Both the position numbers and the translations under genes were made by a program. This document shows positions 1 through 27,758 of a stretch of 64,000 bases of DNA, piece by piece. The stretch lies in the sequence record MT478991.1; one strand, 5' to 3'. The notes beneath the pieces were generated by a model. It did not search any database and had not been told where the DNA came from. It worked only from the letters and a program-made list of their open reading frames with translations. The DNA is from Escherichia phage vB_EcoM_011D4. Each line of letters opens with the position of its first letter. Position 1 is the first letter of the stretch.

Positions 1-419
1 ACGCAATCCATCAAATCAACAATCTCTGATATCTCATCGGTCATGTCTTCTTCCCCTAAGAGAGCACCATTTACCCATTCGTATTGTTCAGACACATAAT
101 CACAGATTGCATTATATTCTGCTGGGGTTATGTTGTTATGTTTGTAATGTTTGAATACATTATCTCCAAAGTCTTCGGAGTGTACTTCATACATCACATT
201 AATGATTTTCTTGACAAATCCATAATCTTGTGTCTCACGCTCAAGGAAGCGGATAACCTTCACATAATCATCAAAGTTAATCTGATCGCTGATCATCTCA
301 GTGATCATGTAACCATTAATCCCCTCAATGTCATATGTTTCGATGTAATTATCCATACGTTCCATCATTGATTCGCGTGATTCTTCTGAAAGACGAAAAT
401 CCTGTAATTTCTTGAACAT
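1..419 (-). CDS. hypothetical protein, N-terminal part only (gene runs off window start); weak Alt/Mod-like motif
   Basis: ATG at 417-419 preceded by GGAGGCTTA RBS; open frame to position 1; not in ORF track because no stop in window; motif YEWVNGALLG resembles Alt region YINMNNFL. Confidence 0.45.
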   Translation of the reverse strand, partial: MFKKLQDFRLSEESRESMMERMDNYIETYDIEGINGYMITEMISDQINFDDYVKVIRFLERETQDYGFVKKIINVMYEVHSEDFGDNVFKHYKHNNITPAEYNAICDYVSEQYEWVNGALLGEEDMTDEISEIVDLMDC

Positions 420-435
420 TTTAAGCCTCCCATAT

Positions 436-471
436 AACAGAAAACGGGGCTAGTATAAAACTAGTCCCCGT
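436..471 (-). terminator. rho-independent terminator downstream of alt
   Basis: Hairpin ACGGGGACTAGTTTTATACTAGCCCCGT then TTTTCTGTT (minus strand). Confidence 0.6.
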
Positions 472-497
472 TTGAGTCAACCATTATTTCTTAAAAA

Positions 498-2615: not shown

Positions 2616-2828
2616 TTATAATGCACCATCGAGCAATTGCTCTAAGGTGTATCCTGAATAGTCTTTTTCAATCAGGATATATTTTCCTACTCGTTTAATA
2701 CAACCACGCATTTCAACGTATTCTGCGTAGTTGATGGTACGAGTTGTTCCATCTTCCAGTAATGCAGTACCGATTTCGTTAATGCGGTCATAAGTTACGT
2801 CGGTAATGATGATTTCGATGTTAGCCAT
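2616..2828 (-). CDS. hypothetical protein (70 aa)
   Basis: ORF with ATG, RBS AAGGAG, upstream promoter cassette. Confidence 0.55.
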   Translation of the reverse strand: MANIEIIITDVTYDRINEIGTALLEDGTTRTINYAEYVEMRGCIKRVGKYILIEKDYSGYTLEQLLDGAL

Positions 2829-2864: not shown

Positions 2865-2893
2865 ATTATGATATACACCCTCTGTTATGTCAA
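2865..2893 (-). promoter_or_regulatory. early promoter cassette (TTGACA-17-CATAAT) with conserved leader
   Basis: Hexamers read on minus strand; leader ACACCCATACCGAAACGA then AAGGAG RBS. Confidence 0.55.
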
Positions 2894-2899
2894 CAACTT

Positions 2900-3079
2900 T
2901 TAGAACATTTTTGAAATTAATTCTGCTTTGATTTCGCAGAGAACATCTAAAGATTTCTCGTCACCTGCTTTTGCGGCTTCTGCTTGCATTTTTGAAATGG
3001 CTTCAATGTCAGTGCAATTATAAGCCGCTTGAACTTTAGCGATTGCGATGATTGCCGATTCGATGGTTAATTGTTTCAT
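2900..3079 (-). CDS. hypothetical small protein (59 aa), below ORF-track cutoff
   Basis: Hand translation MKQLTIESAIIAIAKVQAAYNCTDIEAISKMQAEAAKAGDEKSLDVLCEIKAELISKMF; RBS AGGAGAATCAAAC-ATG; own promoter cassette. Confidence 0.45.
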   Translation of the reverse strand: MKQLTIESAIIAIAKVQAAYNCTDIEAISKMQAEAAKAGDEKSLDVLCEIKAELISKMF

Positions 3080-3111
3080 GTTTGATTCTCCTTTCGTTTC
3101 GGTATGGGTGT

Positions 3112-3140
3112 ATTATAGGGGATCGATGATCCCCTGTCAA
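3112..3140 (-). promoter_or_regulatory. early promoter cassette; palindromic spacer GGGGATCATCGATCCCC
   Basis: TTGACA-17-TATAAT on minus strand. Confidence 0.55.
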
Positions 3141-3148
3141 CAAATTTT

Positions 3149-3667
3149 TTAGTTATTTTTTAATTGCTCATCTTGCAATAGGGCAATCACATGCTGGCGA
3201 TGTTCTTCCGATTGAGGCACACCGAAAAAGTTTGTTTTGTAGAAATACTCTAATCGGTCTTCTCGTGTGCTCTCTTCCATCATGATCGCGGGTAGTCCGA
3301 GATTTCGGAAACGTCGCTTTTCTGCTGGCGTAAAATCACTGTAATACAACATAGAATCATCATTACAAGCAATGCTAAACTCATCCTTCATAAAGGAGAA
3401 TATTGCGTTTAAACGCTGTTTACCGTCCACGATTTCGATCTCATAGCGAGAGCCATCATCAATCTTAGCCATTGCGATAGCACCAACCGGAAAATCATTA
3501 ATCAGGTTTTCGATAAACATACGTTTGTTTTCGGTGTCCCATACTAAAGGACGCTGATAATCTGGGTTCATGTTGATATAGCCATCTTCTAACCATGCAT
3601 CATAAACAGAGATGACAAAGTTTTTAGTATTGGTATAGTAACGGCGTTTAGGCGTTAAACGGTTCAT
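3149..3667 (-). CDS. DUF262 / ParB-Srx-like domain protein
   Basis: Motifs NPDYQRPLVW and IVDGKQRL typical of DUF262 (GmrSD N-terminal / ParB-like); start moved to ATG at 3667 with AGGAGA RBS; coupled to upstream gene (TAAcATG). Confidence 0.55.
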   Translation of the reverse strand: MNRLTPKRRYYTNTKNFVISVYDAWLEDGYINMNPDYQRPLVWDTENKRMFIENLINDFPVGAIAMAKIDDGSRYEIEIVDGKQRLNAIFSFMKDEFSIACNDDSMLYYSDFTPAEKRRFRNLGLPAIMMEESTREDRLEYFYKTNFFGVPQSEEHRQHVIALLQDEQLKNN

Positions 3668-3668
3668 G

Positions 3669-3998
3669 TTATAGTCTCCTGAATGGATCATCACGTAAAT
3701 CAATATCTTTTAAGAACTCATCCCATGAATGGCGGATGTTGTTCTTAATTCTCCAGATAAGAGCAGGGATTGAACGCTCTCCCATCTGGAAGTATGGATC
3801 ATATGATCCGTATGCCCAATATGCTACTACAATTCCACAATCAGCGCAATAGTATTCTATTTCACTTGCTGGCGACCAAAGTCCATCAATATGATCGGTG
3901 ATCTTGCTTTCGATGTTATGGCTATGACAATCAGGGCAACGGATGCAATGACCTTGTTTATCGTAATTTGACGTTAGCGAATACTTAAACAATCTCAT
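3669..3998 (-). CDS. Cys-rich zinc-ribbon protein (109 aa)
   Basis: CxxC...CxxC pattern (CIRCPDC ... CADCG); start overlaps stop of upstream gene (TAATG). Confidence 0.55.
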   Translation of the reverse strand: MRLFKYSLTSNYDKQGHCIRCPDCHSHNIESKITDHIDGLWSPASEIEYYCADCGIVVAYWAYGSYDPYFQMGERSIPALIWRIKNNIRHSWDEFLKDIDLRDDPFRRL

Positions 3999-4714
3999 TA
4001 TAGATCCTTATTTGCTTCAAATACTGCCTTTGCGAATCCTCGCGGGGTAAGTGACCTTATAGTCTTTGTTTTCGTTCCTTTCCCGCCTAGCTTAGAATGC
4101 TGTTTACTGTACCCTTTATTAATCTGCAACGGTTTCTTTTCTGGCATTATAAAGCCTTGTCCGGTCCATAAGCAAGTCTTTTTCGGGTACATATCACGGG
4201 CGGCAATATACTCAGGAAACGTAGGATGCTTATCATCTTCCGGCAAATAACCGCCATATTCCCACGGATGGAACATGTAATCAGGCTTACGCCACATGCT
4301 AGAGATAACGCTTACAGGATTCTCTATCATGTAGGGAACTCCGAGCCATTCACCCAAATAAGCGGTTATTTTAGCTGCCCGTACATCATGAACTTGAATC
4401 AATGGTCCTTGTTCTCGTTTCTTTCGTTCAAAGTGCGCAGCGCCACTAACAGCTAAATTGGTGCACGGTGGGAATGCAAAGATAATATCCGGTTTCCCCC
4501 ATTCAAGGTCCATTGCTCTTTCCAGCCAGTTCAAATCAATCCAGGTGTTTACATAGGTAATGTTTGGATGTTCAAATCTGGTATTATACTTTTTGTATGT
4601 ACCGTGGTCGGCGTCATCCGCATTAAAGCAGACTACCTTATGACCTGCTTTAGCCCATTCTAGCCCCATTATCCCCGATCCGTCAAAGTTGCAGAATATT
4701 AATTTTTGTTTCAT
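3998..4714 (-). CDS. C5-cytosine methyltransferase-like protein (short, no obvious TRD)
   Basis: FxGxG-type motif I (FCNFDGSGIMGLEWAKAGHKVV), PC motif IV (FAFPPCTNLAVSG), ENV-like motif VI (YMIENPVSV); only 238 aa. Confidence 0.5.
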   Translation of the reverse strand: MKQKLIFCNFDGSGIMGLEWAKAGHKVVCFNADDADHGTYKKYNTRFEHPNITYVNTWIDLNWLERAMDLEWGKPDIIFAFPPCTNLAVSGAAHFERKKREQGPLIQVHDVRAAKITAYLGEWLGVPYMIENPVSVISSMWRKPDYMFHPWEYGGYLPEDDKHPTFPEYIAARDMYPKKTCLWTGQGFIMPEKKPLQINKGYSKQHSKLGGKGTKTKTIRSLTPRGFAKAVFEANKDL

Positions 4715-4956
4715 ATACGACCCTTTAACCCAGCACAGATTTTAGTCGGTTCTTTACCGTGCCACATTAAGTAAATTCCGTTAATGCGTCCTTGTTTTGT
4801 ATATGATTCTTTTCTGATCTTCTTATAGTGTCGTGCTTCCTCCGCCGATTGTTTAGAATGTCGGTCATAAAGGAAGAGGAACAAAGGCCAACCATTAGCG
4901 ACCTTAATGCAGTTATTCAAAAATTCCTTATTTCGTTTAATTAATTTTCTTTTCAC
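4711..4956 (-). CDS. hypothetical basic protein (81 aa)
   Basis: GTG start overlapping upstream stop (GTGA); overlaps downstream start by 4 nt. Confidence 0.45.
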   Translation of the reverse strand: MKRKLIKRNKEFLNNCIKVANGWPLFLFLYDRHSKQSAEEARHYKKIRKESYTKQGRINGIYLMWHGKEPTKICAGLKGRI

Positions 4957-5204
4957 GCTGCCCCCATTGGTTTGATAGTAACCGAATCTAAAAGACCTTT
5001 GTTAGCCAGTTCGCGGCAAGTTTTCAGATCCGCAACTTCCCAGCCAGCCGCAATCAGGTTATCAATGAGGCTGTTAGCAACTTCTTCGCTCATGAAAGAG
5101 CACTGTTTGCCGATGGTGTAGCGCACACGCTGTAATTTCAGTTTACGGAAGCCTTTAACGTTCAGGTCTTTAGCGATTTTCTTTGCGGTTTCGATGTTAG
5201 CCAT
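4953..5204 (-). CDS. hypothetical protein (83 aa)
   Basis: ATG with AGGAGAATCAAACA leader; first gene after promoter cassette at 5245-5273. Confidence 0.55.
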   Translation of the reverse strand: MANIETAKKIAKDLNVKGFRKLKLQRVRYTIGKQCSFMSEEVANSLIDNLIAAGWEVADLKTCRELANKGLLDSVTIKPMGAA

Positions 5205-5244
5205 TGTTTGATTCTCCTAAGTGGTATCTCGTCTTGATGGTTGT

Positions 5245-5273
5245 ATTGTAGGGGAGTTATCCTCCCCTGTCAA
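5245..5273 (-). promoter_or_regulatory. early promoter cassette; palindromic spacer GGGGAGGATAACTCCCC
   Basis: TTGACA-17-TACAAT. Confidence 0.5.
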
Positions 5274-5287
5274 CACTTTTTATAAAA

Positions 5288-5455
5288 TTATTTGTTAATT
5301 TCTGGTGCGTTGCTAGGATAGTAACCTTCTTTAACTCCGAGGTATTTCGCAACCATCCCTACAATCTTCTGTGCTACTACAATGTCAAATTTCAGATAAT
5401 CTTCACCGTAGGTTTCAATGATATATGCTTCACATGCTGCTTTAGTCTCGAACAT
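5288..5455 (-). CDS. hypothetical small protein (55 aa), paralog of 8544-8711
   Basis: Hand translation MFETKAACEAYIIETYGEDYLKFDIVVAQKIVGMVAKYLGVKEGYYPSNAPEINK; about 85 percent nt identity with 8544-8711 by eye. Confidence 0.5.
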   Translation of the reverse strand: MFETKAACEAYIIETYGEDYLKFDIVVAQKIVGMVAKYLGVKEGYYPSNAPEINK

Positions 5456-5488
5456 TTTGATTCTCCTATTTCGTTTCGGTATGTGTGC

Positions 5489-5517
5489 ATTATAGGGGAT
5501 CTCCCGATCCCCGTCAA
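5489..5517 (-). promoter_or_regulatory. early promoter cassette; near-palindromic spacer GGGATCGGGAGATCCCC
   Basis: TTGACG-17-TATAAT. Confidence 0.5.
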
Positions 5518-5530
5518 CAACTTTTTTAAA

Positions 5531-5812
5531 TTATTCGTGATTAGTTTCGATGTTGTGCATTTTGCACCAGTTCAGCCAATCGCCAAGATCTTGATAGTTG
5601 ATGCTTTTATCTGCTGCCATCGTTTTTGTCTTGATACCCATATGTGCGTTATGAGTAAGCATTTTTACAGTGAACTCGATTTTATCGCCTTTAGCTTTAA
5701 CATCAACCAGTTTGGTCCACTGGCTACCAGCGCCGCGAATGTTCATACCAACGATGTTTCCGATGTATGCTTCTTTGTTTTTCAGGATTTCGGTTGCTTT
5801 GATGAATTTCAT
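5531..5812 (-). CDS. hypothetical protein (93 aa)
   Basis: ATG, RBS GGAGAATCAAAA, promoter cassette upstream. Confidence 0.55.
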   Translation of the reverse strand: MKFIKATEILKNKEAYIGNIVGMNIRGAGSQWTKLVDVKAKGDKIEFTVKMLTHNAHMGIKTKTMAADKSINYQDLGDWLNWCKMHNIETNHE

Positions 5813-5844
5813 TTTTGATTCTCCAGTTCGTTTCGGTATGGGTG

Positions 5845-5873
5845 TATTATGCTATGTTCTTACTTTGGTGTCA
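5845..5873 (-). promoter_or_regulatory. early promoter cassette
   Basis: TTGACA-17-CATAAT plus conserved leader. Confidence 0.55.
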
Positions 5874-5881
5874 ACAACTTT

Positions 5882-6151
5882 TTAGATATTTTCAGAAATA
5901 AATTTTAAAACTTGACGTAAATGTTTCTCATCTTTGATAGTCGCCGGAAGTTCTTCTTTTACTTCCTGTGCAAGATAGATATTTCCGTTCCAAGTGAAAG
6001 ATCCGTCTTCGTTTACGAGATAGCTGAACATCCACTCGCAATCATTTTCGATTTCATATACACACAGAAGGGTGTAATCGTTAAAGCTATTGATTTCAAG
6101 GTCGAAGCCGTGACGTTTTGCAAAGTTGGTAGTGGTTTTAGTCAGTGCCAT
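5882..6151 (-). CDS. hypothetical protein (89 aa)
   Basis: ATG, RBS AGGAGAATCAAACA, promoter cassette upstream. Confidence 0.55.
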   Translation of the reverse strand: MALTKTTTNFAKRHGFDLEINSFNDYTLLCVYEIENDCEWMFSYLVNEDGSFTWNGNIYLAQEVKEELPATIKDEKHLRQVLKFISENI

Positions 6152-6191
6152 TGTTTGATTCTCCTAAGTGGTATCTCGTTTCGATGGGTGT

Positions 6192-6220
6192 ATTATGCTA
6201 TAGGCGTGTTCTGGTGTCAA
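6192..6220 (-). promoter_or_regulatory. early promoter cassette
   Basis: TTGACA-17-CATAAT plus conserved leader. Confidence 0.55.
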
Positions 6221-6244
6221 TTCTTTTTTTAAAAAATTTTATGC

Positions 6245-6271
6245 AATAAAAAAGCCGACGCTAAGGTCGGC
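6245..6271 (-). terminator. rho-independent terminator
   Basis: GCCGACCTTAGCGTCGGC then TTTTTTATT. Confidence 0.6.
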
Positions 6272-6279
6272 TAATAAAA

Positions 6280-6591
6280 TCATTTAGACAAATAATCATT
6301 CTGTGCAATCCGGTCGGCGTATGCTGGTGTTACGTCAATCGCAATCACTTTAACGCGTGCTTTCTTGCGACCTGGGTTTTCTCGTAACCAGTGCTCATGA
6401 CCGTGCACATTTTTATACTTTGATGCTTCTTCGAAGGTACGGATCGGACCTGGGTAATCAGCGTAAAGGATCTCTAGATCTTCGGTGATGTAAAAATATA
6501 CATCGTAATTGCTGTTCTCTAGCTTAAGCAGAGACTTTCGGAACATTGGGAGATTTTCGCGGGTAAATTCAAAGATATTATCTTTCATAGT
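6280..6591 (-). CDS. hypothetical protein, paralog family A (HxHW...IAIDV motif)
   Basis: Start moved to ATG at 6591 (RBS GAGGATAATACT); track start 6735 would overlap upstream gene and a terminator. Confidence 0.55.
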   Translation of the reverse strand, partial: TMKDNIFEFTRENLPMFRKSLLKLENSNYDVYFYITEDLEILYADYPGPIRTFEEASKYKNVHGHEHWLRENPGRKKARVKVIAIDVTPAYADRIAQNDYLSK

Positions 6592-6610
6592 ATTATCCTC
6601 AATAGTTGGA

Positions 6611-6632
6611 TGAAAAGGGGGCTTAACGCCCC
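6611..6632 (-). terminator. rho-independent terminator
   Basis: GGGGCGTTAAGCCCCC then TTTTCAT. Confidence 0.55.
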
Positions 6633-6637
6633 ATATA

Positions 6638-6925
6638 TTAAAACAGTCCTTCCTGTACACCGTAATAGAGTTCGTCGCTGATAATTTCATTAATGCGACG
6701 GTGTGCATATTCCTGATTTGCGAAGTTGTCAGCAAGTTCTACTTTAGTTTCTCCGTCATGAGTCCATTTAGTGATAACTTTACCATCTGCAAATTTGAAG
6801 TTGAACTCTTTAGCTACCGCATCGCGTACCAGACGTGCAAACTTATTGTTGCGGATTGCATTGTCGGTTTCGTGTGCAGCGTGAGCGAATTTGTTAACTT
6901 TCAGAGTGATAGTAATGTATGCCAT
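6638..6925 (-). CDS. hypothetical protein, paralog family B
   Basis: 95 aa; weak similarity to 9912-10223 (AKEFN region); promoter cassette upstream; terminator downstream. Confidence 0.55.
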   Translation of the reverse strand: MAYITITLKVNKFAHAAHETDNAIRNNKFARLVRDAVAKEFNFKFADGKVITKWTHDGETKVELADNFANQEYAHRRINEIISDELYYGVQEGLF

Positions 6926-6971
6926 AATTTGATTCTCCTAGTTAGAAAGTGTATCTCGTTTCGATGGGTGT

Positions 6972-7000
6972 ATTATGCTATACACCCGACCTCATGTCAA
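6972..7000 (-). promoter_or_regulatory. early promoter cassette
   Basis: TTGACA-17-CATAAT plus conserved leader. Confidence 0.55.
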
Positions 7001-7006
7001 CACTTT

Positions 7007-7285
7007 TTATAAAATAATTTTTTGATATTTTTCTATGATGTTTGTGTAGGTCACATCAACCGCTAGCACCGTTGCTTCGAATCCACCGTCTAGCCAATGG
7101 CTATGATCTCTTTCATCAAAGAAGCCGAGGCCAATACGAAGACCATCCTTAAACTCTGCGCGTACATTTAGATCATCATCGATAAACAGATAAAACCATG
7201 AATTTTTACTAGGATTGATGATACAACCTTTCAGATTAGGGAGAATATCACGACTAAGAATAAACTTATCACCTACTTTGAACAT
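7007..7285 (-). CDS. hypothetical protein, paralog family A
   Basis: Start moved to ATG at 7285 (RBS GAGGAAAATATT); motif HSHWLDGGFEATVLAVDV. Confidence 0.5.
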   Translation of the reverse strand: MFKVGDKFILSRDILPNLKGCIINPSKNSWFYLFIDDDLNVRAEFKDGLRIGLGFFDERDHSHWLDGGFEATVLAVDVTYTNIIEKYQKIIL

Positions 7286-7299
7286 AATATTTTCCTCAC

Positions 7300-7608
7300 T
7301 TATAAAGTTTGACCGTTGTTTTTCGCGTAATGCTGAATGCGTGCTTGATCTGCTTCCGCTGGTGATAGATTCCATGCGATCACTACAACTTCTGACGCAT
7401 CATGATCATTATCACTTACCCAATGATTGTGATTCATACAGTTATTTGCTATCGCGTGAGAAAATGATTTCATCACTGGAGACGTATAATCATAGTAACG
7501 GATTTTCAGATTTTCATCAACGTACAAATAGATCGTATAAGGTTTATATTCAGTAACCAGTAACAGACAGTTACGCAATTCTGGGAAAATCTTTTTAGTT
7601 AATTTCAT
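7300..7608 (-). CDS. hypothetical protein, paralog family A
   Basis: Motif NHNHW...VVVIAWNL; RBS GGAGAACTAGAAT. Confidence 0.5.
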   Translation of the reverse strand: MKLTKKIFPELRNCLLLVTEYKPYTIYLYVDENLKIRYYDYTSPVMKSFSHAIANNCMNHNHWVSDNDHDASEVVVIAWNLSPAEADQARIQHYAKNNGQTL

Positions 7609-7810
7609 ATTCTAGTTCTCCGTAATACACAGTAATCCATTTTTCTTCATACTTTGTATCTTTCCAGCACACAATCCCGTTTACTGTGCAATCTTTGGAA
7701 TTGACGAATGATTCATATTGTTCTGCATCTTCCATCATTGCATGAGCGGTCTTTTCATCGAATATATCGCAGATCGCTTTATATGCTCGATAATCTTTAA
7801 ATTTGCTCAT
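7595..7810 (-). CDS. hypothetical protein, paralog family C
   Basis: MSKFKDYRAYK... similar to product of 7813-8022. Confidence 0.45.
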   Translation of the reverse strand: MSKFKDYRAYKAICDIFDEKTAHAMMEDAEQYESFVNSKDCTVNGIVCWKDTKYEEKWITVYYGELEYEIN

Positions 7811-7812
7811 AA

Positions 7813-8022
7813 TTAACACCAATCAAGAGTTTTTGAGAAAACCTCTATCCATTGTTGAGTATATGCGGTTTCTTTCCATGACACAATACCAGTCGAATAA
7901 TGGTTTTTGTTTCCAGAAAAGGACGGGCATTTTGATGCATCTTCCATCATCTTTTCGGCGAACTCTGGTGCGTATACTCGCAAAATCTGTTGATATGCTT
8001 TGTATTCTTTAAATTTGCTCAT
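7813..8022 (-). CDS. hypothetical protein, paralog family C
   Basis: MSKFKEYKAYQ...; tandem to 7595-7810. Confidence 0.45.
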   Translation of the reverse strand: MSKFKEYKAYQQILRVYAPEFAEKMMEDASKCPSFSGNKNHYSTGIVSWKETAYTQQWIEVFSKTLDWC

Positions 8023-8287
8023 AATCATTCACTACCTTATCAGCTTCTTTTGTTGTTTTTACATCAACTGCGATAACTCGTAAAGGTTCGTCATGGTTCC
8101 ACCAGTGGTCATGAATATCGGCTTGTGATTTATCACCAAAGGAATCACGAATATCATTTTTACATTTATAGCTAATGTGACCGTCATAGTCAACATAAAG
8201 GTAATTATCGAAAATCGGCGTTTTTAAGATCATACCGAAAAATCTTTCTTTGTGTGTCTTATCCAGCGTTGCAGTAATTCGCATCAT
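8009..8287 (-). CDS. hypothetical protein, paralog family A
   Basis: Motif HDHWWNHDEPLRVIAVDV. Confidence 0.5.
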   Translation of the reverse strand: MMRITATLDKTHKERFFGMILKTPIFDNYLYVDYDGHISYKCKNDIRDSFGDKSQADIHDHWWNHDEPLRVIAVDVKTTKEADKVVNDYEQI

Positions 8288-8299
8288 AATATATTCCTC

Positions 8300-8479
8300 T
8301 TAGAAAGGGATGGTCATTTCTTGAGCTTGTACATTCTCGTTAGGATTAAACTTCATCCAACCGATATTGTCTACCAGCATATGCACATTTTTATCATATC
8401 CTACGTGGGTAGTCAATACTGTATGTGCTTTACCTTCAATGATGAGTTCCATGTACTTCTGAACTTCGATAGCTTTCAT
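8300..8479 (-). CDS. hypothetical small protein (59 aa), below ORF-track cutoff
   Basis: Hand translation MKAIEVQKYMELIIEGKAHTVLTTHVGYDKNVHMLVDNIGWMKFNPNENVQAQEMTIPF; RBS GGAGAATCAAA; promoter cassette upstream. Confidence 0.45.
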   Translation of the reverse strand: MKAIEVQKYMELIIEGKAHTVLTTHVGYDKNVHMLVDNIGWMKFNPNENVQAQEMTIPF

Positions 8480-8511
8480 TTTGATTCTCCGTTTGTTGTC
8501 TTTATGGGAGT

Positions 8512-8540
8512 ATCTTACTACTCCCTTTAATCATTGTCAA
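8512..8540 (-). promoter_or_regulatory. early promoter cassette; hairpin GGGAGTAGTAAGATACTCCC across -10
   Basis: TTGACA-17-TAAGAT. Confidence 0.5.
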
Positions 8541-8543
8541 CTA

Positions 8544-8711
8544 TTATTTGTTAATTTCTGGTGCGTTGCTTGGATAGTAACCTTCTTTAACACCCAGATA
8601 TTTTGCAACCATTCCGGTGATCTTCTGTGCTACTACGATATCGAATTTCAGGTAGTCTTCACCGTGGTTTGCTACAATGTATGCTTCGCATTCTGCTTTA
8701 GTCTGGAACAT
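8544..8711 (-). CDS. hypothetical small protein (55 aa), paralog of 5288-5455
   Basis: MFQTKAECEAYIVANHGEDYLKFDIVVAQKITGMVAKYLGVKEGYYPSNAPEINK; start moved to ATG at 8711. Confidence 0.5.
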   Translation of the reverse strand: MFQTKAECEAYIVANHGEDYLKFDIVVAQKITGMVAKYLGVKEGYYPSNAPEINK

Positions 8712-8745
8712 TTTTGATTCTCCTATATCTCGTTGGTATGTGTGC

Positions 8746-8774
8746 ATTATAGGGGATCACAGATCCCCTGTCAA
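8746..8774 (-). promoter_or_regulatory. early promoter cassette; palindromic spacer GGGGATCTGTGATCCCC
   Basis: TTGACA-17-TATAAT. Confidence 0.55.
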
Positions 8775-8779
8775 CAACT

Positions 8780-9073
8780 TTATAATGCTTTATATGCGTA
8801 TTTCATAAATTTGTCTGCCACTTCATTGGCATGTTCAGATTCTACGCCTGATTCGAGAACAATAGCTAGGTCGGTTTCGTCATTCCCGCCGTACCAATGA
8901 TTTGATGTTCGATTTTTTTCAATTGGAAATTGGTCACTTTTATCTGTGCGACAAAATACATCTAAATGCTCGTCTATGTAAAAGATCCAATCCTCATAAA
9001 GAATAACGGTATTAGCCAGATTTTTATTGCCTTCAACGAAAGGTTCAGCTACAAATAGCTTAGTTTGTTCCAT
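8780..9073 (-). CDS. hypothetical protein, paralog family A-like
   Basis: Start moved to ATG at 9073 (RBS GAGGAAATTACT); motif NHWYGGNDETDLAIVLE. Confidence 0.5.
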   Translation of the reverse strand: MEQTKLFVAEPFVEGNKNLANTVILYEDWIFYIDEHLDVFCRTDKSDQFPIEKNRTSNHWYGGNDETDLAIVLESGVESEHANEVADKFMKYAYKAL

Positions 9074-9089
9074 AGTAATTTCCTCAAAA

Positions 9090-9281
9090 TTATACAGCTT
9101 CGTAAACTTCCCAATGTCCAACACCAGCACGCTTAACGAAAAGGTTTTCTTTGATGTTATTCATAAACGTCTGGATGGATTTAATGCGGTTGGAAGGTTT
9201 CCAGTCTTCGTTAGCATTGCGGCGATACATTATAACATTACCAGATCGCTTATATTCAGCAACCATTTTAAGACCACACAT
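9090..9281 (-). CDS. hypothetical protein (63 aa)
   Basis: ATG with GAGGATAATATT RBS; hairpin TGGGAGGGTAATACTCTCCCA just upstream. Confidence 0.45.
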   Translation of the reverse strand: MCGLKMVAEYKRSGNVIMYRRNANEDWKPSNRIKSIQTFMNNIKENLFVKRAGVGHWEVYEAV

Positions 9282-9337
9282 AATATTATCCTCAATTTGT
9301 GGGAGAGTATTACCCTCCCAATTATTGTTATACTACA

Positions 9338-9640
9338 TTACGCAAAATGGCGTGTCAATGCTTCTTTTGCTGTTCCGCTAAGATTCTCGATCTCTCCTGG
9401 CATAACATCAACCGCCAGAACTTCTACAACATCCTCTGATCCTAACCAGTGAGTATGACCTTTGTAGAACTTGATATCCCATTTAACGCTATCGCTAGCC
9501 CACCACACATCACCGTCGATAAAGTTGATGTAAAGCACACTACGCCACATTGAATTAATTACTTTCAATACTGCGCCTTTCATCTCTTCCACGGTATGGT
9601 CTTCCATTTTGAAGACCTCACCTACCTGAACTTTTGCCAT
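9338..9640 (-). CDS. hypothetical protein, paralog family A
   Basis: Motif HTHWLGSEDVVEVLAVDV; RBS GAGGTGACTAA. Confidence 0.5.
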   Translation of the reverse strand: MAKVQVGEVFKMEDHTVEEMKGAVLKVINSMWRSVLYINFIDGDVWWASDSVKWDIKFYKGHTHWLGSEDVVEVLAVDVMPGEIENLSGTAKEALTRHFA

Positions 9641-9657
9641 TTAGTCACCTCTCTTTA

Positions 9658-9837
9658 TTACATAACAATCACGCCAGCCGTTGAAAGTTGATGTTTCAAC
9701 TGAGCATTTTCTGCTACCGTCAAATCAATGATTTCTTGTGACGCTGCAATCATATAGCCATTGGTGATATTGTTTTGCATCAGTTCAATGGTTTCTTCGT
9801 TGTAGCGGATTTTAGCGATGATTTCGTTGAAGTTCAT
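9658..9837 (-). CDS. hypothetical small protein (59 aa), below ORF-track cutoff
   Basis: Hand translation MNFNEIIAKIRYNEETIELMQNNITNGYMIAASQEIIDLTVAENAQLKHQLSTAGVIVM; promoter cassette upstream. Confidence 0.45.
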   Translation of the reverse strand: MNFNEIIAKIRYNEETIELMQNNITNGYMIAASQEIIDLTVAENAQLKHQLSTAGVIVM

Positions 9838-9871
9838 AATTGATTCTCCTAGTTCGTTTCGGTATGTGTGT

Positions 9872-9901
9872 ATTATAGGGGAGTTTAACCTCCCCTGTCA
9901 A
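9872..9901 (-). promoter_or_regulatory. early promoter cassette; palindromic spacer GGGGAGGTTAAACTCCCC
   Basis: TTGACA-18-TATAAT. Confidence 0.5.
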
Positions 9902-9911
9902 CAACTTTTTT

Positions 9912-10223
9912 TTAAAGTTTTTCCATGATAACGGTCATAATTACATCTTCTGCGCGAGCGGTCAGATTATCAGCGTCAGCATGTGGGCGGTTGGTTGTTA
10001 CAGAGATAACACCGTTGCGCACTGGTTTGATATTGATATCAAGATGATCCGCGAAACGTTCGCCAGTTACAGAATGAATTTTGGTGTTAAATTCTTTTGC
10101 CAGTGCCTTGCGAACTTCACGAATCAGGATAGCGTTTTTCAGTTGGTTCTCTGCGCTCATGGTCTTCTGGGTGTTCATGGTTCCGTCGAAGTCAATCATT
10201 GGCAGCGTTACGATGTATTTCAT
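9912..10223 (-). CDS. hypothetical protein, paralog family B
   Basis: 103 aa; ATG with GGAGAATAAAAA RBS; promoter cassette upstream. Confidence 0.55.
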   Translation of the reverse strand: MKYIVTLPMIDFDGTMNTQKTMSAENQLKNAILIREVRKALAKEFNTKIHSVTGERFADHLDINIKPVRNGVISVTTNRPHADADNLTARAEDVIMTVIMEKL

Positions 10224-10268
10224 TTTTTATTCTCCGTTTAAGAAAGTGTGTTTCGTTTTGATGTGTGT

Positions 10269-10297
10269 AGTATAGGGGATCGGTGATCCCCTGTCAA
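10269..10297 (-). promoter_or_regulatory. early promoter cassette; palindromic spacer GGGGATCACCGATCCCC
   Basis: TTGACA-17-TATACT. Confidence 0.5.
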
Positions 10298-18441: not shown

Positions 18442-18474
18442 CTTGATACTCCTTAGTTGTTTTGGTATGGGAGT

Positions 18475-18503
18475 ATCTTACTACTCCCGTGATATACTGT
18501 CAA
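18475..18503 (-). promoter_or_regulatory. early promoter cassette; hairpin across -10
   Basis: TTGACA-17-TAAGAT. Confidence 0.5.
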
Positions 18504-18511
18504 CTGCTTTT

Positions 18512-18661
18512 TTATGCAACCGCAAACATCAACATTTGAACATTCTTGGCTGTATGGCTTTCAAAGTTCTGACATTCTTTGATAATGTCCTCTACTTTCT
18601 CGCCGGAGATCTCCGCGTAAGTTTCGATTGCCATTTTCAGTACCGCGTCAAAGTTGTTCAT
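18512..18661 (-). CDS. hypothetical small protein (49 aa), below ORF-track cutoff
   Basis: Hand translation MNNFDAVLKMAIETYAEISGEKVEDIIKECQNFESHTAKNVQMLMFAVA; promoter cassette upstream. Confidence 0.4.
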   Translation of the reverse strand: MNNFDAVLKMAIETYAEISGEKVEDIIKECQNFESHTAKNVQMLMFAVA

Positions 18662-18699
18662 TTGATTCTCCTTAAAGTGTATTTCGTTTCGATGGGGGT

Positions 18700-18728
18700 A
18701 TATTACTACCCCCGTTTCATGCTGTCAA
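18700..18728 (-). promoter_or_regulatory. early promoter cassette; hairpin GGGGGTAGTAATATACCCCC across -10
   Basis: TTGACA-17-TAATAT. Confidence 0.5.
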
Positions 18729-18947
18729 CTACTTTTTAATGACAAGTTCAAATTTTGCTACTTTGCGTCCGCGTTTATTGAAAGCCACCCACGGACGGTT
18801 TTCAATGTAGAACAACTCTTCACCTATAATGAATACTGGCTGATTGTAAAGGCGACCCATCAGGTCACGCTGGCGAATGGTAGTAGATTCGTATACTTCG
18901 CCTACTACAAAGTGTTTGCTGATAGAGTCGGTGCAAGTAAATTTCAT
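18729..18947 (-). CDS. hypothetical protein (72 aa)
   Basis: Start moved to ATG at 18947 (RBS AGGAGAATCAAA); promoter cassette upstream. Confidence 0.5.
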   Translation of the reverse strand: MKFTCTDSISKHFVVGEVYESTTIRQRDLMGRLYNQPVFIIGEELFYIENRPWVAFNKRGRKVAKFELVIKK

Positions 18948-18980
18948 TTTGATTCTCCTTTGTTTCGTTTCGATGGGAGT

Positions 18981-19009
18981 ATTATGCAATACTCCCTAAT
19001 GTGTGTCAA
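18981..19009 (-). promoter_or_regulatory. early promoter cassette; hairpin across -10
   Basis: TTGACA-17-CATAAT. Confidence 0.5.
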
Positions 19010-19180
19010 CTGCCTTTTTGAAAGTTTTCTGCTTTTCTTAGGTGAAATTTCGAGGAATAAAAATTAAAGTCTTCCTCTTTCACGATACTAATTGACGTTG
19101 CAAGGTTTTCGTCCCAATGGTTGATGATATAGAGATTTCCTTCCGCTCTAAAATACCAACGTTGTTCTTTCATGTTCACC

Positions 19181-19348: not shown

Positions 19349-19381
19349 ATTTGATTCTCCTTAAAGTGTGTTTCGATGTGC

Positions 19382-19411
19382 GTATTATGCTATGACAAGA
19401 TCCGATTGTCA
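19382..19411 (-). promoter_or_regulatory. early promoter cassette
   Basis: TTGACA-17-CATAAT. Confidence 0.5.
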
Positions 19412-19459
19412 ACAGCCAATAACAAAAAAGTCGCCACTATGGGCGACTTTGAACAAACA

Positions 19460-21616: not shown

Positions 21617-21647
21617 AATAAAATCCTCACTTGTTTTTGATGGTTGT

Positions 21648-21676
21648 ATTATAGCGGGGATTTCTCCCCGCGTCAA
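21648..21676 (-). promoter_or_regulatory. early promoter cassette; palindromic spacer CGGGGAGAAATCCCCGC
   Basis: TTGACG-17-TATAAT. Confidence 0.5.
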
Positions 21677-21684
21677 CACTTATT

Positions 21685-23928
21685 TTACAGCTTGCAAGAT
21701 GAGCACTCGCTAGCGTCTTCCGTACCATCAGCACCATCACGCACGTTAGCGTAATACAGGGTTTTCAGACCGTAATATTGAGCAAACAGCATATCATCTA
21801 ACACATCAGCAATATCGACTTTACCAGTCTTATAAGTGCTTGGATCATAGGATGTATTGGAACTAATCGCCTGATCTACAAACTTCTGCATGATCGCTGC
21901 CAGTGTCAGATAGGGCTTGTTACCTTTCTTGATCAGTGTCCAAAGCAGGTCAATAACATCAGCATTATTCTCTACGTTCGGAATAACCTGATTAAATTGC
22001 CCTTCTTTCGATCCTTTAACCGATACAATCCCGCGAGGCGGTTCAATACCATTTGTGCTGTTAGACACCTGAGAGGACGACTCACAAGGCATCAGCGCCG
22101 ACAGTGTACTGTTACGAATGCCATATTTTTTCAGGTCTTCGCGCAGTTCTTCCCAATCCATCTCATACACCGGATCAACCAGTTCATCTACTGTCTTTTT
22201 GTACCAGTCGATAGGAAGTTCACCGCGACCATAGCGTGTTTCGTGCATCAGTTCGCAAGCACCCTTCTCTTTAGCCAGTCGCACACTAGCCTTAATCAGA
22301 GCATATTGCAAGCGTTCAAACGTTTTATGCGTAAACTCGTTAGCGTCTTCATATGTGAAGAAATTATCTGCTAGATATGATGCAAAGTTAGTAACACCAA
22401 CACCCAGAGAGCGACGTTTTTTGGCTGTCAGAGCTTGTTCTACAGGATAATCCTGATAATCTAACAGGTTGTCAAGTGCACGCACCATAACCATAGCAAT
22501 GCGTTCTACTTCTTCCATATTTTCGATATCGAAATTACCTAAAACATATGCTGCCAAAGTACATAGGCTAATTTCTGAATCATCCCGACCCATCGGTTTA
22601 GTAGGCAGTGCAATTTCACAACACAGGTTAGATTGTTTAATCGGTGCTACATTACGAATAAACGCCCCATGATTGTTCATGTTGTCTGTGAACGTTGGGT
22701 AGATTCGACCAGTGTTAAAACGTTCAATTGCCACCGCTAAAAACAGGTCTTCGGCTTTAACACGAGTTTTACGAACACTCGGATCTTTTTCCAGTTTTTC
22801 GTAAAGCTGGCGGAAACCTTCCTCATCTCGGAAGTACAGATCCCACAACAAGCCACCCGCAACATCTGGACTAAACAGAGTAATGTAATCCCGTTTAAGG
22901 AATCGCTCTACCATCAGGTTATTAATCTGTACGCCGTAATCAAGATGACGAATGCGGTTATCTTCCACCCCCTTATTGTTCTTCAACACAATCAGACTTT
23001 CAAACTCTAAATGCCACATTGGGTAATAGAGAGTCGCCGCCCCGCCACGAATACCGCCTTGTGAGCATGACTTAACGGCAGTCTGAAAATGTTTCCAGAA
23101 TGGGATAACGCCAGTATGACGAACTTCACCATGCCCGATCTTAGATCCTTCCGCGCGAATCATACCAGCATTGATACCGATACCAGCACGCTTACTAATA
23201 TACTTGATGATTGCATTTGCTGTTTCGTTGATGCCCTGCAATGAGTCATCACTTTCAATAACCACACACGAACTAAATTGTCGTGTCGGGGTACGCACAC
23301 CCGCCATAATCGGAGTAGGCAGAGAGATTTGCTTATTCGCAACAGCATTATAAAAATCAATCACATGTTCAAGTCGATTTTCTGTCTCTTCTTGATGCAA
23401 GCACATACCGATCAGCATATACGCAAATTGCGGTGTTTCAATGATTTTCTTAGTGCTGCGATCCTGAACAAGATATTTCTCTTTTAACTGCATCGCACCA
23501 GCGTAGGTCATTTTAAAATCAAGTTTATGATCGATGAATTTCTCCAGATATTCCACTTCTTCGCGGGAATACTTTTGCAGAATTTCGCGATCATATTTTC
23601 CGGTTGCAATATTACGCTCAATATGGCTATAAAAATCAATCGGTTGGAATTGACCGTATACTGATTTACGAAGCGCGAACATTGCAAGGTTACTTGCTAC
23701 ATATTGATAATCAGGTGTTTCTACAGTAATGTTATCTGCGGCGACCTTAATCAATACTTTCTGGATATCATTGGTAGACATACCTTCTGTCAGAAGTGGT
23801 TCAACCATATCAAACAATTCATATGGATCAACGTTATGACCTTCGGCTGCCGCTTCCAGAATTTTCATTACTTTTTCTTTTTCAAACGGAACAGTCAGAC
23901 CGGAAGACTTAACAACATTTTTAATCAT
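21685..23928 (-). CDS. nrdA: ribonucleotide reductase large (alpha) subunit
   Basis: 747 aa; ATP-cone N-terminus; catalytic-site regions (NLCCEI, PCESS); synteny. Confidence 0.9.
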   Translation of the reverse strand: MIKNVVKSSGLTVPFEKEKVMKILEAAAEGHNVDPYELFDMVEPLLTEGMSTNDIQKVLIKVAADNITVETPDYQYVASNLAMFALRKSVYGQFQPIDFYSHIERNIATGKYDREILQKYSREEVEYLEKFIDHKLDFKMTYAGAMQLKEKYLVQDRSTKKIIETPQFAYMLIGMCLHQEETENRLEHVIDFYNAVANKQISLPTPIMAGVRTPTRQFSSCVVIESDDSLQGINETANAIIKYISKRAGIGINAGMIRAEGSKIGHGEVRHTGVIPFWKHFQTAVKSCSQGGIRGGAATLYYPMWHLEFESLIVLKNNKGVEDNRIRHLDYGVQINNLMVERFLKRDYITLFSPDVAGGLLWDLYFRDEEGFRQLYEKLEKDPSVRKTRVKAEDLFLAVAIERFNTGRIYPTFTDNMNNHGAFIRNVAPIKQSNLCCEIALPTKPMGRDDSEISLCTLAAYVLGNFDIENMEEVERIAMVMVRALDNLLDYQDYPVEQALTAKKRRSLGVGVTNFASYLADNFFTYEDANEFTHKTFERLQYALIKASVRLAKEKGACELMHETRYGRGELPIDWYKKTVDELVDPVYEMDWEELREDLKKYGIRNSTLSALMPCESSSQVSNSTNGIEPPRGIVSVKGSKEGQFNQVIPNVENNADVIDLLWTLIKKGNKPYLTLAAIMQKFVDQAISSNTSYDPSTYKTGKVDIADVLDDMLFAQYYGLKTLYYANVRDGADGTEDASECSSCKL

Positions 23929-23956: not shown

Positions 23957-23997
23957 CAAGTTTATCCTCCATATTGGGGGCTTTCGCCCCCCTTTGT
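23957..23997 (-). repeat. direct repeat with GGGGGCGAAAGCCCCC hairpin, left flank of methyltransferase pseudogene
   Basis: About 35-bp match to the copy at 24757-24797. Confidence 0.5.
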
Positions 23998-24754
23998 TAC
24001 AAGTCTAACGTATTTTGATGTATTCTGTCAACGGCAATTTGATAATATTTTTCGTCTTTCTCTATGCCGACAAAATTTCGATTTAAGTTTCGACACGCAA
24101 CACCAGTTGTTCCACTTCCCATAGTAAAATCCAGAACAGTTTCCCCCTCGTTGGTGTAAGTTTTTATCAGATATTCCATTAACTCTACTGGTTTCTGTGT
24201 TGGGTGCAATCCTCTTTCTTTACATCGACCGGAATAACTTACAATAGATTCTGGGCATTTGGTATCGTATGTTTTATTATTATAGCTTTGGTTTGTGACT
24301 AAAGGGATCGCCCCACTTTCATTTTTGTTGCTTCCTTTTTTAATTGGCTTGTCTCTTTTCGTCATTTGCGGATAATAAAGTGGCATTTTCCAGTTCTTGA
24401 AAATATGATAACATCTTCATGAATTTTTAACGGTTGTCGTTTTGCTTGAACAAAATTTGCCGCAAATTTTTTATCCCACACCCAAGAATAACAGAATCCG
24501 TTCATATTACTATGAATTAATGCCGTTGTGAATGGTTGAGACGCGGTCATGACAATGGCATTTTTAGGTTTAATTATTCTATTAATCGCCGCCCACATTT
24601 CAGTAAATGGTATAACACTATCCCATTTACACGCTGTTGTTCCATATGGAGGATCACAAAGAATTAAATCTACGCTTTCCGTTTCAATTTCTTTCATCAG
24701 TTCCAGACAATCCCCGTTCATCAACCAGATTTTGTCAGTTCTAACGTCATTCAT
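23997..24754 (-). pseudogene. beta-class DNA methyltransferase (N6A or N4C) split by a +1 frameshift
   Basis: ORF 24362-24754 has DPPY motif IV; ORF 23997-24386 has HPTQKP and DFTMGSGTT (motif I); the two overlap by 25 nt in different frames. Confidence 0.55.
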
Positions 24755-27289: not shown

Positions 27290-27320
27290 AATATAATCCT
27301 CTCTTCGTTTCGATGTTTGT

Positions 27321-27348
27321 ATTATACATCATCTGTATTCGGTGTCAA
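27321..27348 (-). promoter_or_regulatory. early promoter cassette
   Basis: TTGACA-16-TATAAT. Confidence 0.5.
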
Positions 27349-27674
27349 CCTTTTTGTTCCATGAAAAGCGGTGCTGTTTCTTCTTTCAGTTTAATAACTA
27401 GCGCGGAAACTTCATCAAGAAAATCTTTTTCCATATGAGCAAGCATTGATTTAGAATCTTTGATGACTTTCAAAGAATATTCACTTAGATCTCCTTTTCC
27501 TAACAATAATGCAGGATACACACTATGTGGGATCTCGATTTCATGATATTCGCTCATAGTATAATATTTGTGAATTTTTAAATCTATATTTCTTCGTTGT
27601 ACGTCTACCTCAGCAATGACATACAGAAGTTCGATTTTATCACTTTTCTGGGAAAGGGTAGCATTCAAAAACAT
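27345..27674 (-). CDS. hypothetical protein (109 aa)
   Basis: ATG, RBS GGAGGATTAACA; promoter cassette upstream. Confidence 0.55.
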   Translation of the reverse strand: MFLNATLSQKSDKIELLYVIAEVDVQRRNIDLKIHKYYTMSEYHEIEIPHSVYPALLLGKGDLSEYSLKVIKDSKSMLAHMEKDFLDEVSALVIKLKEETAPLFMEQKG

Positions 27675-27703
27675 TGTTAATCCTCCGTTGTTTCGATGAG
27701 CGC

Positions 27704-27731: not shown

Positions 27732-27758
27732 CACCTTTTTCATAAAATTTTAGGCAAT

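Follow-up and report, generated by a model that had tools for sequence, protein, structure and literature searches.

Promoter-early stem-loop (PeSL) cassettes were defined and tested in phages RB49 and phi1, largely at the locus considered here (Arbiol et al. 2010, Genome Biol Evol 2:140, PMC2839356). A PeSL comprises a sigma70-consensus early promoter preceded by an AT-rich tract that holds the stop codon of the upstream gene, a downstream Shine-Dalgarno (SD) sequence and start codon, and a stem-loop, in many cases GGGG...CCCC, that can occupy any of five positions with respect to the promoter; 52 were counted in phi1 and 51 in RB49 (PMC2839356). According to the same study, the PeSL211/210 stem-loop cuts lacZ expression about as much as rrnB T1, the PeSL206/205 promoter yields about 13,000 Miller units, most cloned PeSLs acquired promoter-down mutations, and circular excision products (mini-circles) are detectable (PMC2839356). 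Few concrete mechanisms have been proposed for accessory-gene shuffling in large virulent phages without a dedicated recombinase, and PeSLs are among them. Here we describe a family of repeated promoter cassettes in a 64,000-nucleotide (nt) stretch of Escherichia phage vB_EcoM_011D4 (MT478991.1; hereafter the window), with a dense array at positions 2828–10310. These cassettes are, with little room for doubt, PeSLs, that is, the promoter–terminator cassettes of the RB49/phi1 group, and the window comes from another member of that group.

The PeSL concept has been extended to other T4-type phage pairs (Comeau et al. 2014, PMC4122927). The PeSLs and PmSLs of T4/PST and KVP40/nt-1 likewise join a promoter to a stem-loop in hyperplastic regions with swaps of open reading frames (ORFs), but their promoters (TTTACW...TAYWAT and TTGYVH...TAWWAT) and stems (A3-4G3/C3T3-4 and AGNA/TCNT) differ (PMC4122927), and they are analogues of the window family, not its sequence relatives. 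The PeSL authors also drew an analogy to lambdoid morons and integron gene cassettes, in which single accessory genes carry their own expression signals (PMC2839356). Morons, however, have no conserved flanking repeat mediating exchange, and integrons depend on attC sites and an integrase of their own, whereas for the window cassettes no recombinase is known or needed.

Correspondence with published PeSLs

The window is from a Krischvirus and is collinear with RB49 throughout. The cassette region, which corresponds to ORF185 to ORF212 of phi1/RB49 between alt and gene 30, aligns from end to end at 94–98% identity with about 60 Krischvirus genomes, among them ELT4, JEP8, GEC-3S, phi1 and RB49. 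By alignment, cassettes 10297, 8774 and 5517 (all cassettes are named after the position at which their -35 element starts; Table 1) are the orthologues of RB49 PeSL211/210, PeSL206/205 and PeSL192/191, from which they differ by a few bases, chiefly in the hairpin loops; cassette 5517 also aligns with phi1 193/191 with few substitutions. By these alignments, the cassettes are a further instance of an element already known, and the preliminary description of this DNA, made from the letters alone, had rightly recognized an RB49-type system. Published lacZ reporter activity concerns the RB49/phi1 orthologues of cassette 10297 (as a terminator) and of cassette 8774 (as a promoter) (PMC2839356). 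Moreover, the GenBank record of GEC-3S annotates 11 promoters with -35 and -10 signals at homologous positions.

Shared with the RB49/phi1 elements are the genus, the locus, the sequences themselves, the A-rich tract with a stop codon, TTGACA-N17-TATAAT, a GN-loop-CN hairpin in variable position, SD and ATG, as well as the location in hyperplastic regions upstream of ORFans and the tie to insertions and deletions. The clusters at 2.8–10.3, 18.4–19.4, 27.3–27.7 and 46.0–47.2 kb sit between core genes (alt, gene 30, nrd, td, 32, tail fibres), and the downstream ORFs are annotated as hypothetical in relatives, most of them without a Pfam match. The published ORF192 and ORF211 polymorphisms are reproduced, the window lacking ORF192 like phi1 and carrying ORF211 like RB49. 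Nothing essential differs from the RB49/phi1 PeSLs; this is another natural isolate, which displays the published polymorphisms (ORF192, ORF211, ORF186 and ORF191) and chimeric cassettes directly and changes nothing conceptually. The details that we did not find in the two PeSL papers are that the hairpins end at or before the predicted -1, that one class of hairpin occurs in two registers on the same conserved 3′ arm, that stem changes are compensated among nine genomes, and that the ribosome-binding block resembles a RegB/S1 site. For the specialist, the points of interest are the sense-strand hairpins upstream of the start, the class overlapping the -10 without a U-run as candidate terminators, and the RegB/S1-like block, all of them modest.

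Within the phage collection searched, the family is confined to Krischvirus, where 58 records hold most of an 84-nt cassette query. A 47-nt match (85% identity, E=1e-4) to the core of cassette 3140 (-35, palindromic spacer and -10) was seen in the Salmonella jumbo phages 7t3, SE_PL and PHA46, which have genomes of about 340 kb and lie outside Krischvirus; this promoter-core match is weak. An Rfam scan of the whole window at gathering thresholds returned zero families.

A cassette family on the minus strand

An nhmmer profile built from the 11 units read in the minus-strand sequence of 2828–10310 was used to search the window (E<1e-3), and 25 copies were obtained with E values from 7e-19 to 4e-4, all 25 on the minus strand. 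All 11 copies that had been reported in about 7.4 kb are thus present, and the places given for further copies were also accurate: 14 additional profile matches lie at 18.4–19.4 kb (4), 21.7 kb (1), 27.3–27.7 kb (2), 46.0–47.2 kb (4), 54.3, 60.5 and 63.9 kb, the last a marginal family member (63889), and the units at 54655 and 61115 agree in architecture. The hidden Markov model matches cover profile positions 2–82, from the A-tract through the ATG, and similarity is therefore not confined to the ribosome-binding region.

The repetition was equally evident by other measures. The 47-nt consensus occurs five times with at most 3 mismatches, against none in 100 shuffles, and the minus strand holds 35 sigma70 matches of at least 11/12 and the plus strand 0, with about 1.2 per strand expected from resampled sequence. 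Moreover, GGAGAATCA occurs 16 times, always on the minus strand and in 15 of 16 cases within a cassette, and direct-repeat families of 70–77 nt were recovered independently by a repeat search. A chance origin of the cassette repeats is excluded. A degenerate leader pattern, CCCATMSRAAACGA, gave two matches in the search, no better than chance; since a 2-nt insertion or deletion separates the leader sub-types, this pattern is too rigid, and the profile search was used instead.

Promoter, start site and leader

On the minus strand, each unit reads as an A-tract, GTTG-TTGACA, 17 nt, TATAAT or CATAAT, ACACCCAT..., GGAGAATCAA and ATG. The -35 element is TTGAC(A/G/T) in 25 of 25 copies and the -10 element is TATAAT, CATAAT or a close variant, so that the sigma70 consensus that had been proposed is borne out as a near-consensus TTGACA-N17-TATAAT in every copy. 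The spacer, described earlier as 16–18 bp, measures 17 nt in 22 copies, 16 in two and 18 in one. Upstream of the -35, the consensus is AAAAAGTTG, with 1.0–1.6 bits at positions -9 to -5 and -1, and the TAA stop codons of the upstream gene are visible in the A-rich, UP-like tract. An SD and a start codon close the unit at its 3′ end in 24 of 25 copies (the exception being 63889).

In all 24 copies that have a ribosome-binding region, a CAT is found whose A lies exactly 7 nt after the -10. For RB49 early promoters, a preference for C at -3 to -1 is reported, along with a consensus that agrees with 5′-end mapping (PMC1524935), and the position of CAT is in accord with both. Because the spacing is invariant (24/24), ACACCC is probably an untranscribed discriminator; in the preliminary description it had been taken for the beginning of the leader, whereas it most likely lies upstream of the start site. 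A literature search for a Krischvirus transcriptome found none.

The predicted 5′ untranslated regions, of 23–40 nt (median, 27), are A/C-rich and nearly unstructured, at -0.033 kcal/mol per nt compared with a background of -0.130 (p=4e-13). They consist of two conserved blocks, AU(AC)CGAAACGA and GGAGAAUCAA, joined by a variable linker. The expectation of about 35 nearly identical leader nucleotides did not hold, as the 20 nt after the -10 show a mean ungapped pairwise identity of 59%. Among orthologues in nine genomes, the mean pairwise difference was 0.000 in the -35, 0.018 from the ribosome-binding site to the ATG, 0.028 in the leader, 0.031 in the -10, 0.046 at codon position 3 and 0.086 in the spacer. 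The leader is moderately constrained, and the spacer changes fastest, with its pairing preserved.

It may be asked whether the units reached the strongest sigma70 promoter and ribosome-binding site independently, with neither common descent nor a part in recombination. The best-conserved positions are indeed the functional ones (-35, -10, CAT start and GGAG), as such convergence would predict. However, the similarity also takes in the GTTG before the -35, ACACCC and the leader blocks AUACCGAAACGA and ACACUUU, for which no consensus requirement is known, and these shared features are missing from 38 other promoter-like sites on the same strand. Leader sub-types are common to cassettes with different 5′ halves, which is a mosaic pattern, and actual crossovers are seen in chimeric orthologues (see below). 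We regard convergence as very improbable.

The otherwise dissimilar genes behind cassettes 2893 and 5273 begin with the same MANIE codons (ATGGCTAACATCGAAA, the first five or six codons; 2828–2843 and 5189–5204), and cassette homology can therefore reach into the 5′ end of the coding sequence.

Stem-loops in the promoter core

The preliminary description left out the G/C-rich stem-loop that defines a PeSL. By its position, the copies fall into classes (members in Table 1): a hairpin in the spacer between -35 and -10 (class A, 7 copies), a hairpin overlapping the -10 and the discriminator (class B, 9 copies), and no internal hairpin with a canonical terminator bearing a T-run upstream of the A-tract (class C, 4 copies). 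One unit outside the family has a hairpin downstream of the -10. Promoter cores folding at -8 kcal/mol or below make up 16 of the 25 cassettes, against 4% of random 32-nt minus-strand segments and 2 of the 38 other promoter-like sites.

Comparison of 31 distinct hairpin variants (window and eight relatives) revealed loops that vary freely and stems that remain paired. The 5′ and 3′ arms of class B covary (GGGTGT/ACACCC, GGGAGT/ACTCCC, GGGGGT/ACCCCC, GGGGAT/ATCCCC and GGGGAT/GTCCCC), and cassette 7000 has in GEC-3S and phi1 orthologues with GGGGATAT/ATATCCCC, a compensated change. The two leader variants distinguished earlier, ACACCC and ACTCCC, are explained by this, both being the 3′ arm of a class B stem. 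Aligning all hairpins of class B, or all of class A, with MAFFT gave results that were out of register; because stem registers and loop lengths differ, the formal pair count was made on the nine class B1 variants only, and the rest were tabulated by script. In these nine, two pairs are changed on both sides (UA/GC/AU and GC/AU/GU), and 98.6% of cells pair, a percentage inflated by the choice of hairpins for their pairing, which tells against our reading; the observed covariation score was reached in 0 of 500 shuffles. The class B stem occurs in two registers on the same 3′ arm, 8 bp from +13 and 7 bp from +15, so that its 5′ arm apparently arose more than once. G–T or T–G pairs, which pair on the sense strand only, are present in six variants and lend mild support to a structure at the RNA level.

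Class A and class B hairpins end at or before the predicted -1. If transcription starts at the A of CAT, the hairpin is absent from the cassette's own mRNA, as its stem ends by -1, and it could form only in read-through RNA from the upstream unit. The hairpins appear to be selected as sense-strand structures lying wholly upstream of the start site, a placement that fits the insulating role, as terminator or attenuator, for which published work has argued. In class A the hairpin is followed by UAUAAU and in class B by AU(A)CC, and a terminator scan of the minus strand reported the upstream hairpins of class C and not those of classes A and B. Identification of the latter two as ordinary intrinsic terminators was rejected, since they have no U-run and were missed by the canonical scan.

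The same hairpins could instead be DNA-level palindromes or cruciforms bound by a phage protein (a recombinase, a nuclease, for example that of the neighbouring HNH ORF212, or a repressor), driving excision and insertion or shutting off the promoter, and not mainly RNA terminators. Arbiol et al. speculated that GGGG...CCCC is perhaps bound by a recombination protein (PMC2839356). The missing U-run of classes A and B is in keeping with a DNA target, as is the location within the promoter core, since RNA polymerase would be blocked by a protein bound at this place; GATC (Dam) sites occur in pairs in four of the seven class A stems (10269–10297, 8746–8774, 5489–5517 and 3112–3140). Yet pairing is kept while stem sequence is not (GGGGATC, GGGGAG, GCGGGGA, GGGTGTAT, GGGAGTA, GGGGGTA and GGGGATAT), and the registers vary relative to -35 and -10, which is hard to fit to one sequence-specific binder; since stem sequences and registers differ, a palindrome serving as a sequence-specific operator was judged unlikely. 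G–T pairing on the sense strand also speaks against a DNA target, chimeric cassettes have their crossovers in the block of -10, discriminator and leader and not in the hairpin, the hairpin-less cassette 27348 also lies at a breakpoint, and no recombinase was identified in RB49/phi1 (PMC2839356). A protein-bound DNA palindrome is accordingly an improbable explanation, and we retain the reading of the hairpins as structures of upstream read-through RNA.

A terminator-like repeat of 34 nt (ATGAAAAGGGGGCTTAACGCCCC...) stands downstream of two cassette-driven genes, at 2588–2621 and 6610–6643 (91% identical), and is annotated as a terminator in GEC-3S and G2494.

Gain and loss of genes at cassettes

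Structural differences of at least 60 bp were collected between the window and RB49 over 64 kb and between the window and seven other relatives over the first 14 kb. Of the 17 distinct differences, 10 break within a cassette at one end or more, where 2.4 would be expected, and 8 do so at both ends, against an expectation of 0.63; in 20,000 random placements, numbers this high never occurred. The cassette-linked events include the published ORF192 insertion at cassette 5517, where RB49 and G2494 carry an extra ORF192 (about 530 bp) at the upstream edge, and the ORF211 polymorphism at cassette 10297. Replacements are bounded by cassettes 19009/19412, 27348/27731 and 46084–46675.

Chimeric cassettes were found in relatives. 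In ECD7 and JK32, a single chimeric cassette replaces cassette 3140, its gene and cassette 2893 of the window, its 5′ half (end of the upstream gene, -35, class A hairpin and -10) being of the 3140 type and its 3′ half (leader, ribosome-binding site and first codons) of the 2893 type. An equivalent single chimera of cassettes 5517 and 5273 is present in Brandy and JK32, and phi1 PeSL206/205 is a chimera of two cassette types. The crossovers fall in the shared -10/discriminator/leader block, not in the hairpin.

The preliminary description had proposed that the cassettes mediate gain, loss and duplication of the genes they flank. Gain and loss are supported by the breakpoints (10/17) and by the chimeras in ECD7, JK32 and Brandy, whereas duplication is seen for only one cassette-plus-gene unit, 5287–5528, which recurs at 8543–8781 (genes 5288–5455 and 8544–8711, 87% amino-acid identity). 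The other six paralogue pairs, including the tandem pairs 7595/7813 and 21109/21276, have no cassette between their members; the suggested fit to the paralogue families thus extends to one pair of seven, and paralogues were set aside as general evidence of cassette-mediated duplication. A paralogue family of about 100 amino acids with a C-terminal HW...(V/I)AVDV motif occupies 6280–9640 (minus strand; 6280..6708, 7007..7375, 7300..7608, 9338..9640 and others, with the tandem pair 7595..7810/7813..8028). Most of its members are translationally coupled within operons and rely not on a cassette but on a second conserved block for ribosome binding, GAGGAWAATAYTATG.

Several observations weigh against the assignment of the cassettes as promoter–terminator modules of exchange. 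Five of the 25 copies have neither hairpin nor upstream terminator (5874, 27348, 46675, 60546 and 63889, the hairpin of 46675 being degenerate), classes A and B have no U-run and neither is reported by the canonical terminator scan of the transcribed strand, and terminator activity in the literature refers to one class A stem-loop only (PMC2839356). Start sites and termination in this phage are predicted or taken over from reporter assays on RB49/phi1 orthologues. With regard to exchange, a null model limited to gene junctions was not rejected in 2.4–10.7 kb, where 11 of 25 junctions carry a cassette; because the 8-kb region shows no significant enrichment under this null, the case for the mechanism is founded on the chimeric cassettes and not on counts alone. 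Finally, seven of the 17 events map away from cassettes, and several of these seven are bounded by other short direct repeats, seen as alignment overlaps of 16–58 bp, so that the cassettes are the commonest recombination substrate and not the sole one. The differences give a picture of ordinary homologous recombination between available direct repeats, of which the cassettes are by far the most abundant, and a dedicated recombinase would be unneeded.

These results can be combined into the following scheme. Each cassette leads from an upstream stop in the A-rich, UP-like tract through TTGACA, the 17-nt spacer, the -10, the ACACCC discriminator, the CAT start motif, the leader and GGAGAAUCAA to the ATG that opens a small accessory gene. 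Class A carries a G/C-rich hairpin in the spacer, and class B one that spans the -10 and the discriminator; where the hairpin is missing, its place is usually taken by an upstream terminator (class C). Judging from the consensus and from published reporter assays on orthologues, host RNA polymerase would fire all units right after infection, and the hairpin, formed in upstream read-through RNA, would act as a terminator, attenuator or 3′-end structure insulating neighbouring units. Since about 25 copies of a 50–90-bp sequence share one orientation, phage homologous recombination could cross over between cassettes, whereby the intervening genes would be deleted, inserted or exchanged and one chimeric cassette left.

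The ribosome-binding block as a possible RegB/S1 site

In T4, RegB together with ribosomal protein S1 recognizes an 11-nt single-stranded site, GGAGRAYARAA (optimum, GGAGAAUAAAA), and cuts within the SD of early mRNAs (Durand et al. 2006, PMC1702504); the RegB encoded by RB49 is active and diverged (PMC3014915). The leader and ribosome-binding block of the cassettes might therefore be kept mainly as a post-transcriptional site, with GGAGAAUCAAA as the target of RegB and S1, inactivating the cassette mRNAs together minutes after infection. This proposal adds to the PeSL assignment, and we hold it to be quite possible while stopping short of favouring it. Within the unstructured leaders, GGAGAAUCAAA matches GGAGRAYARAA at 10 of 11 positions, and it is nearly exclusive to cassettes, the operon-internal genes mostly having GAGGAWAAUAYUAUG. 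What the block has in common with T4 sites is its GGAG, the A-rich unstructured stretch after it, with a pyrimidine at position 7, and the location in early-gene initiation regions; the cassette block differs in having C at position 8, where T4 sites strongly prefer A. A strong SD with an A-rich spacer would also be expected from selection for translation alone, and RegB is unmentioned in either PeSL paper (PMC2839356, PMC4122927).

The block suggests that cassette-driven mRNAs are co-ordinately inactivated; if the RegB site is real, the genes behind cassettes would constitute a coordinately silenced regulon. More tentatively, and with some doubt as to the whole, a PeSL may be a self-contained early-expression module with its own shut-off, GGAGAAUCAAA being an RB49-type RegB/S1 site, whose hairpin would never enter its own transcript and whose class B form would have arisen on two or more occasions, the registers differing while the conserved -10/discriminator arm stayed the same. 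A gene landing behind such a PeSL would at once be transcribed as an immediate-early gene, be translated efficiently from its unstructured leader and have its mRNA inactivated at a set time.

Coordinates and neighbouring features

Table 1. Positions of the 25 family members and of three units that share only their architecture
Feature	Coordinates	Strand	-35	Stem-loop and promoter features	E	Orthologue, driven gene or remark
C1	10221..10310	-	10297	class A GGGGATC-ACC-GATCCCC, -12 kcal/mol	8e-16	orthologue RB49 PeSL211/210; drives ORF210 homologue 9912..10223
C2	9835..9913	-	9901	class A GGGGAG-GTTAAA-CTCCCC; 18-nt spacer	5e-18	drives 9658..9837
C3	8709..8785	-	8774	class A GGGGATC-TGT-GATCCCC	6e-18	orthologue PeSL206/205; drives ORF205 homologue, start 8711
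C4	8479..8552	-	8540	class B GGGAGTA-GTAAGA-TACTCCC over -10 TAAGAT	5e-10	drives 8300..8479
C5	6927..7014	-	7000	class B GGGTGTAT-AGCATA-ATACACCC	8e-17	drives 6638..6925
C6	6150..6272	-	6220	class C, terminator AGCCGAC..GTCGGCT+T-run 6253–6272 upstream of A-tract	8e-14	drives 5882..6151
C7	5810..5886	-	5874	no hairpin	2e-15	drives 5531..5812
C8	5455..5530	-	5517	class A GGGGATC-GGGA-GATCCCC	1e-18	orthologue RB49 PeSL192/191, phi1 193/191; drives 5288..5455
C9	5203..5287	-	5273	class A GGGGAG-GATAA-CTCCCC	5e-16	drives 4953..5204
C10	3077..3151	-	3140	class A GGGGATC-ATC-GATCCCC	7e-19	perfect family-consensus match; drives 2900..3079
C11	2828..2907	-	2893	class B GGGTGTAT-ATCATA-ATACACCC	1e-16	drives 2616..2828
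cassette 18503	18442..18514	-		class B GGGAGTA/TACTCCC	2e-11	
cassette 18728	18661..18740	-		class B GGGGGTA/TACCCCC	6e-12	leader variant covaries with arm
cassette 19009	18947..19022	-		class B GGGAGTATT/AATACTCCC	5e-11	breakpoint of gene replacement vs RB49
cassette 19412	19350..19450	-		class C, upstream terminator AAAGTCGCC..GGCGACTTT+T-run	4e-7	other breakpoint of 19009 replacement
cassette 21676	21629..21687	-		class A GCGGGGA-GAAA-TCCCCGC	2e-6	
cassette 27348	27304..27354	-		no hairpin	4e-4	breakpoint of replacement vs RB49 (ORF239 region)
cassette 27731	27673..27785	-		class C, upstream terminator AGCCTCCC-TTCG-GGGAGGCT+T-run	8e-7	other breakpoint of ORF239-region replacement
cassette 46084	46043..46095	-		class B GGGAGTA/TACTCCC	2e-7	breakpoint vs RB49
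cassette 46362	46306..46376	-		class B GGGAGTA/TACTCCC	1e-7	breakpoint vs RB49
cassette 46675	46621..46687	-		degenerate class B hairpin GGTAGTA/TACTCCC, one mismatch	1e-9	
cassette 47208	47146..47250	-		class C, upstream terminator AAGCCGATC..GGTCGGCTT+T-run	8e-10	
cassette 54285	54244..54297	-		class B GGGGATAT-ATCATA-ATGTCCCC, one U-G pair	7e-8	
cassette 60546	60486..60551	-		no hairpin; -10 AATAAT	2e-7	
cassette 63889	63851..63897	-		promoter part only, no ribosome-binding region	4e-4	marginal; apparently within coding region
unit 54655	54590..54660	-		TTGACA-17-TATAAT, hairpin AAAGGGAGA..TCTCCCTTT around -10, T-run		architecture only, outside sequence family
unit 61115	61030..61125	-		promoter, then hairpin GCCTCC..GGAGGC+T-run downstream of -10	1.4	architecture only
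unit downstream of alt	415..485	-		TTGACT-17-TATACT, hairpin ACGGGG..CCCCGT around -10, T-run		architecture only

Other differences from RB49 were noted outside the cassettes. The tail-fibre region contains a highly divergent patch of about 520 bp (39964–40488, plus strand), and an extra segment of about 120 bp is present at 57724–57845, neither being associated with a cassette. At 23997–24754 (minus strand), an N6/N4 DNA methyltransferase (PF01555) is split into the overlapping ORFs 24362..24754 and 23997..24386 and is therefore frameshifted or a pseudogene; about 770 bp at this gene are absent from RB49, and the flanking direct repeat contains the stem-loop AACAAAGGGGGGCGAAAGCCCCC. A free-standing homing endonuclease-like ORF (HNH_3 and AP2; 28789–29382, minus strand), likewise absent from RB49, separates gene 59 from the early promoter of gene 32 (-35 at 28799), its insertion point being directly upstream of that promoter. 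The operon behind cassette 5273 (3149–3703 and 3998–4714, minus strand) encodes a GmrSD_N (DUF262) protein and a protein that is called a Dcm/C-5 cytosine methylase in relatives and has no Pfam match at E<=0.01. The two may be a counter-defence or modification pair in this hyperplastic region.

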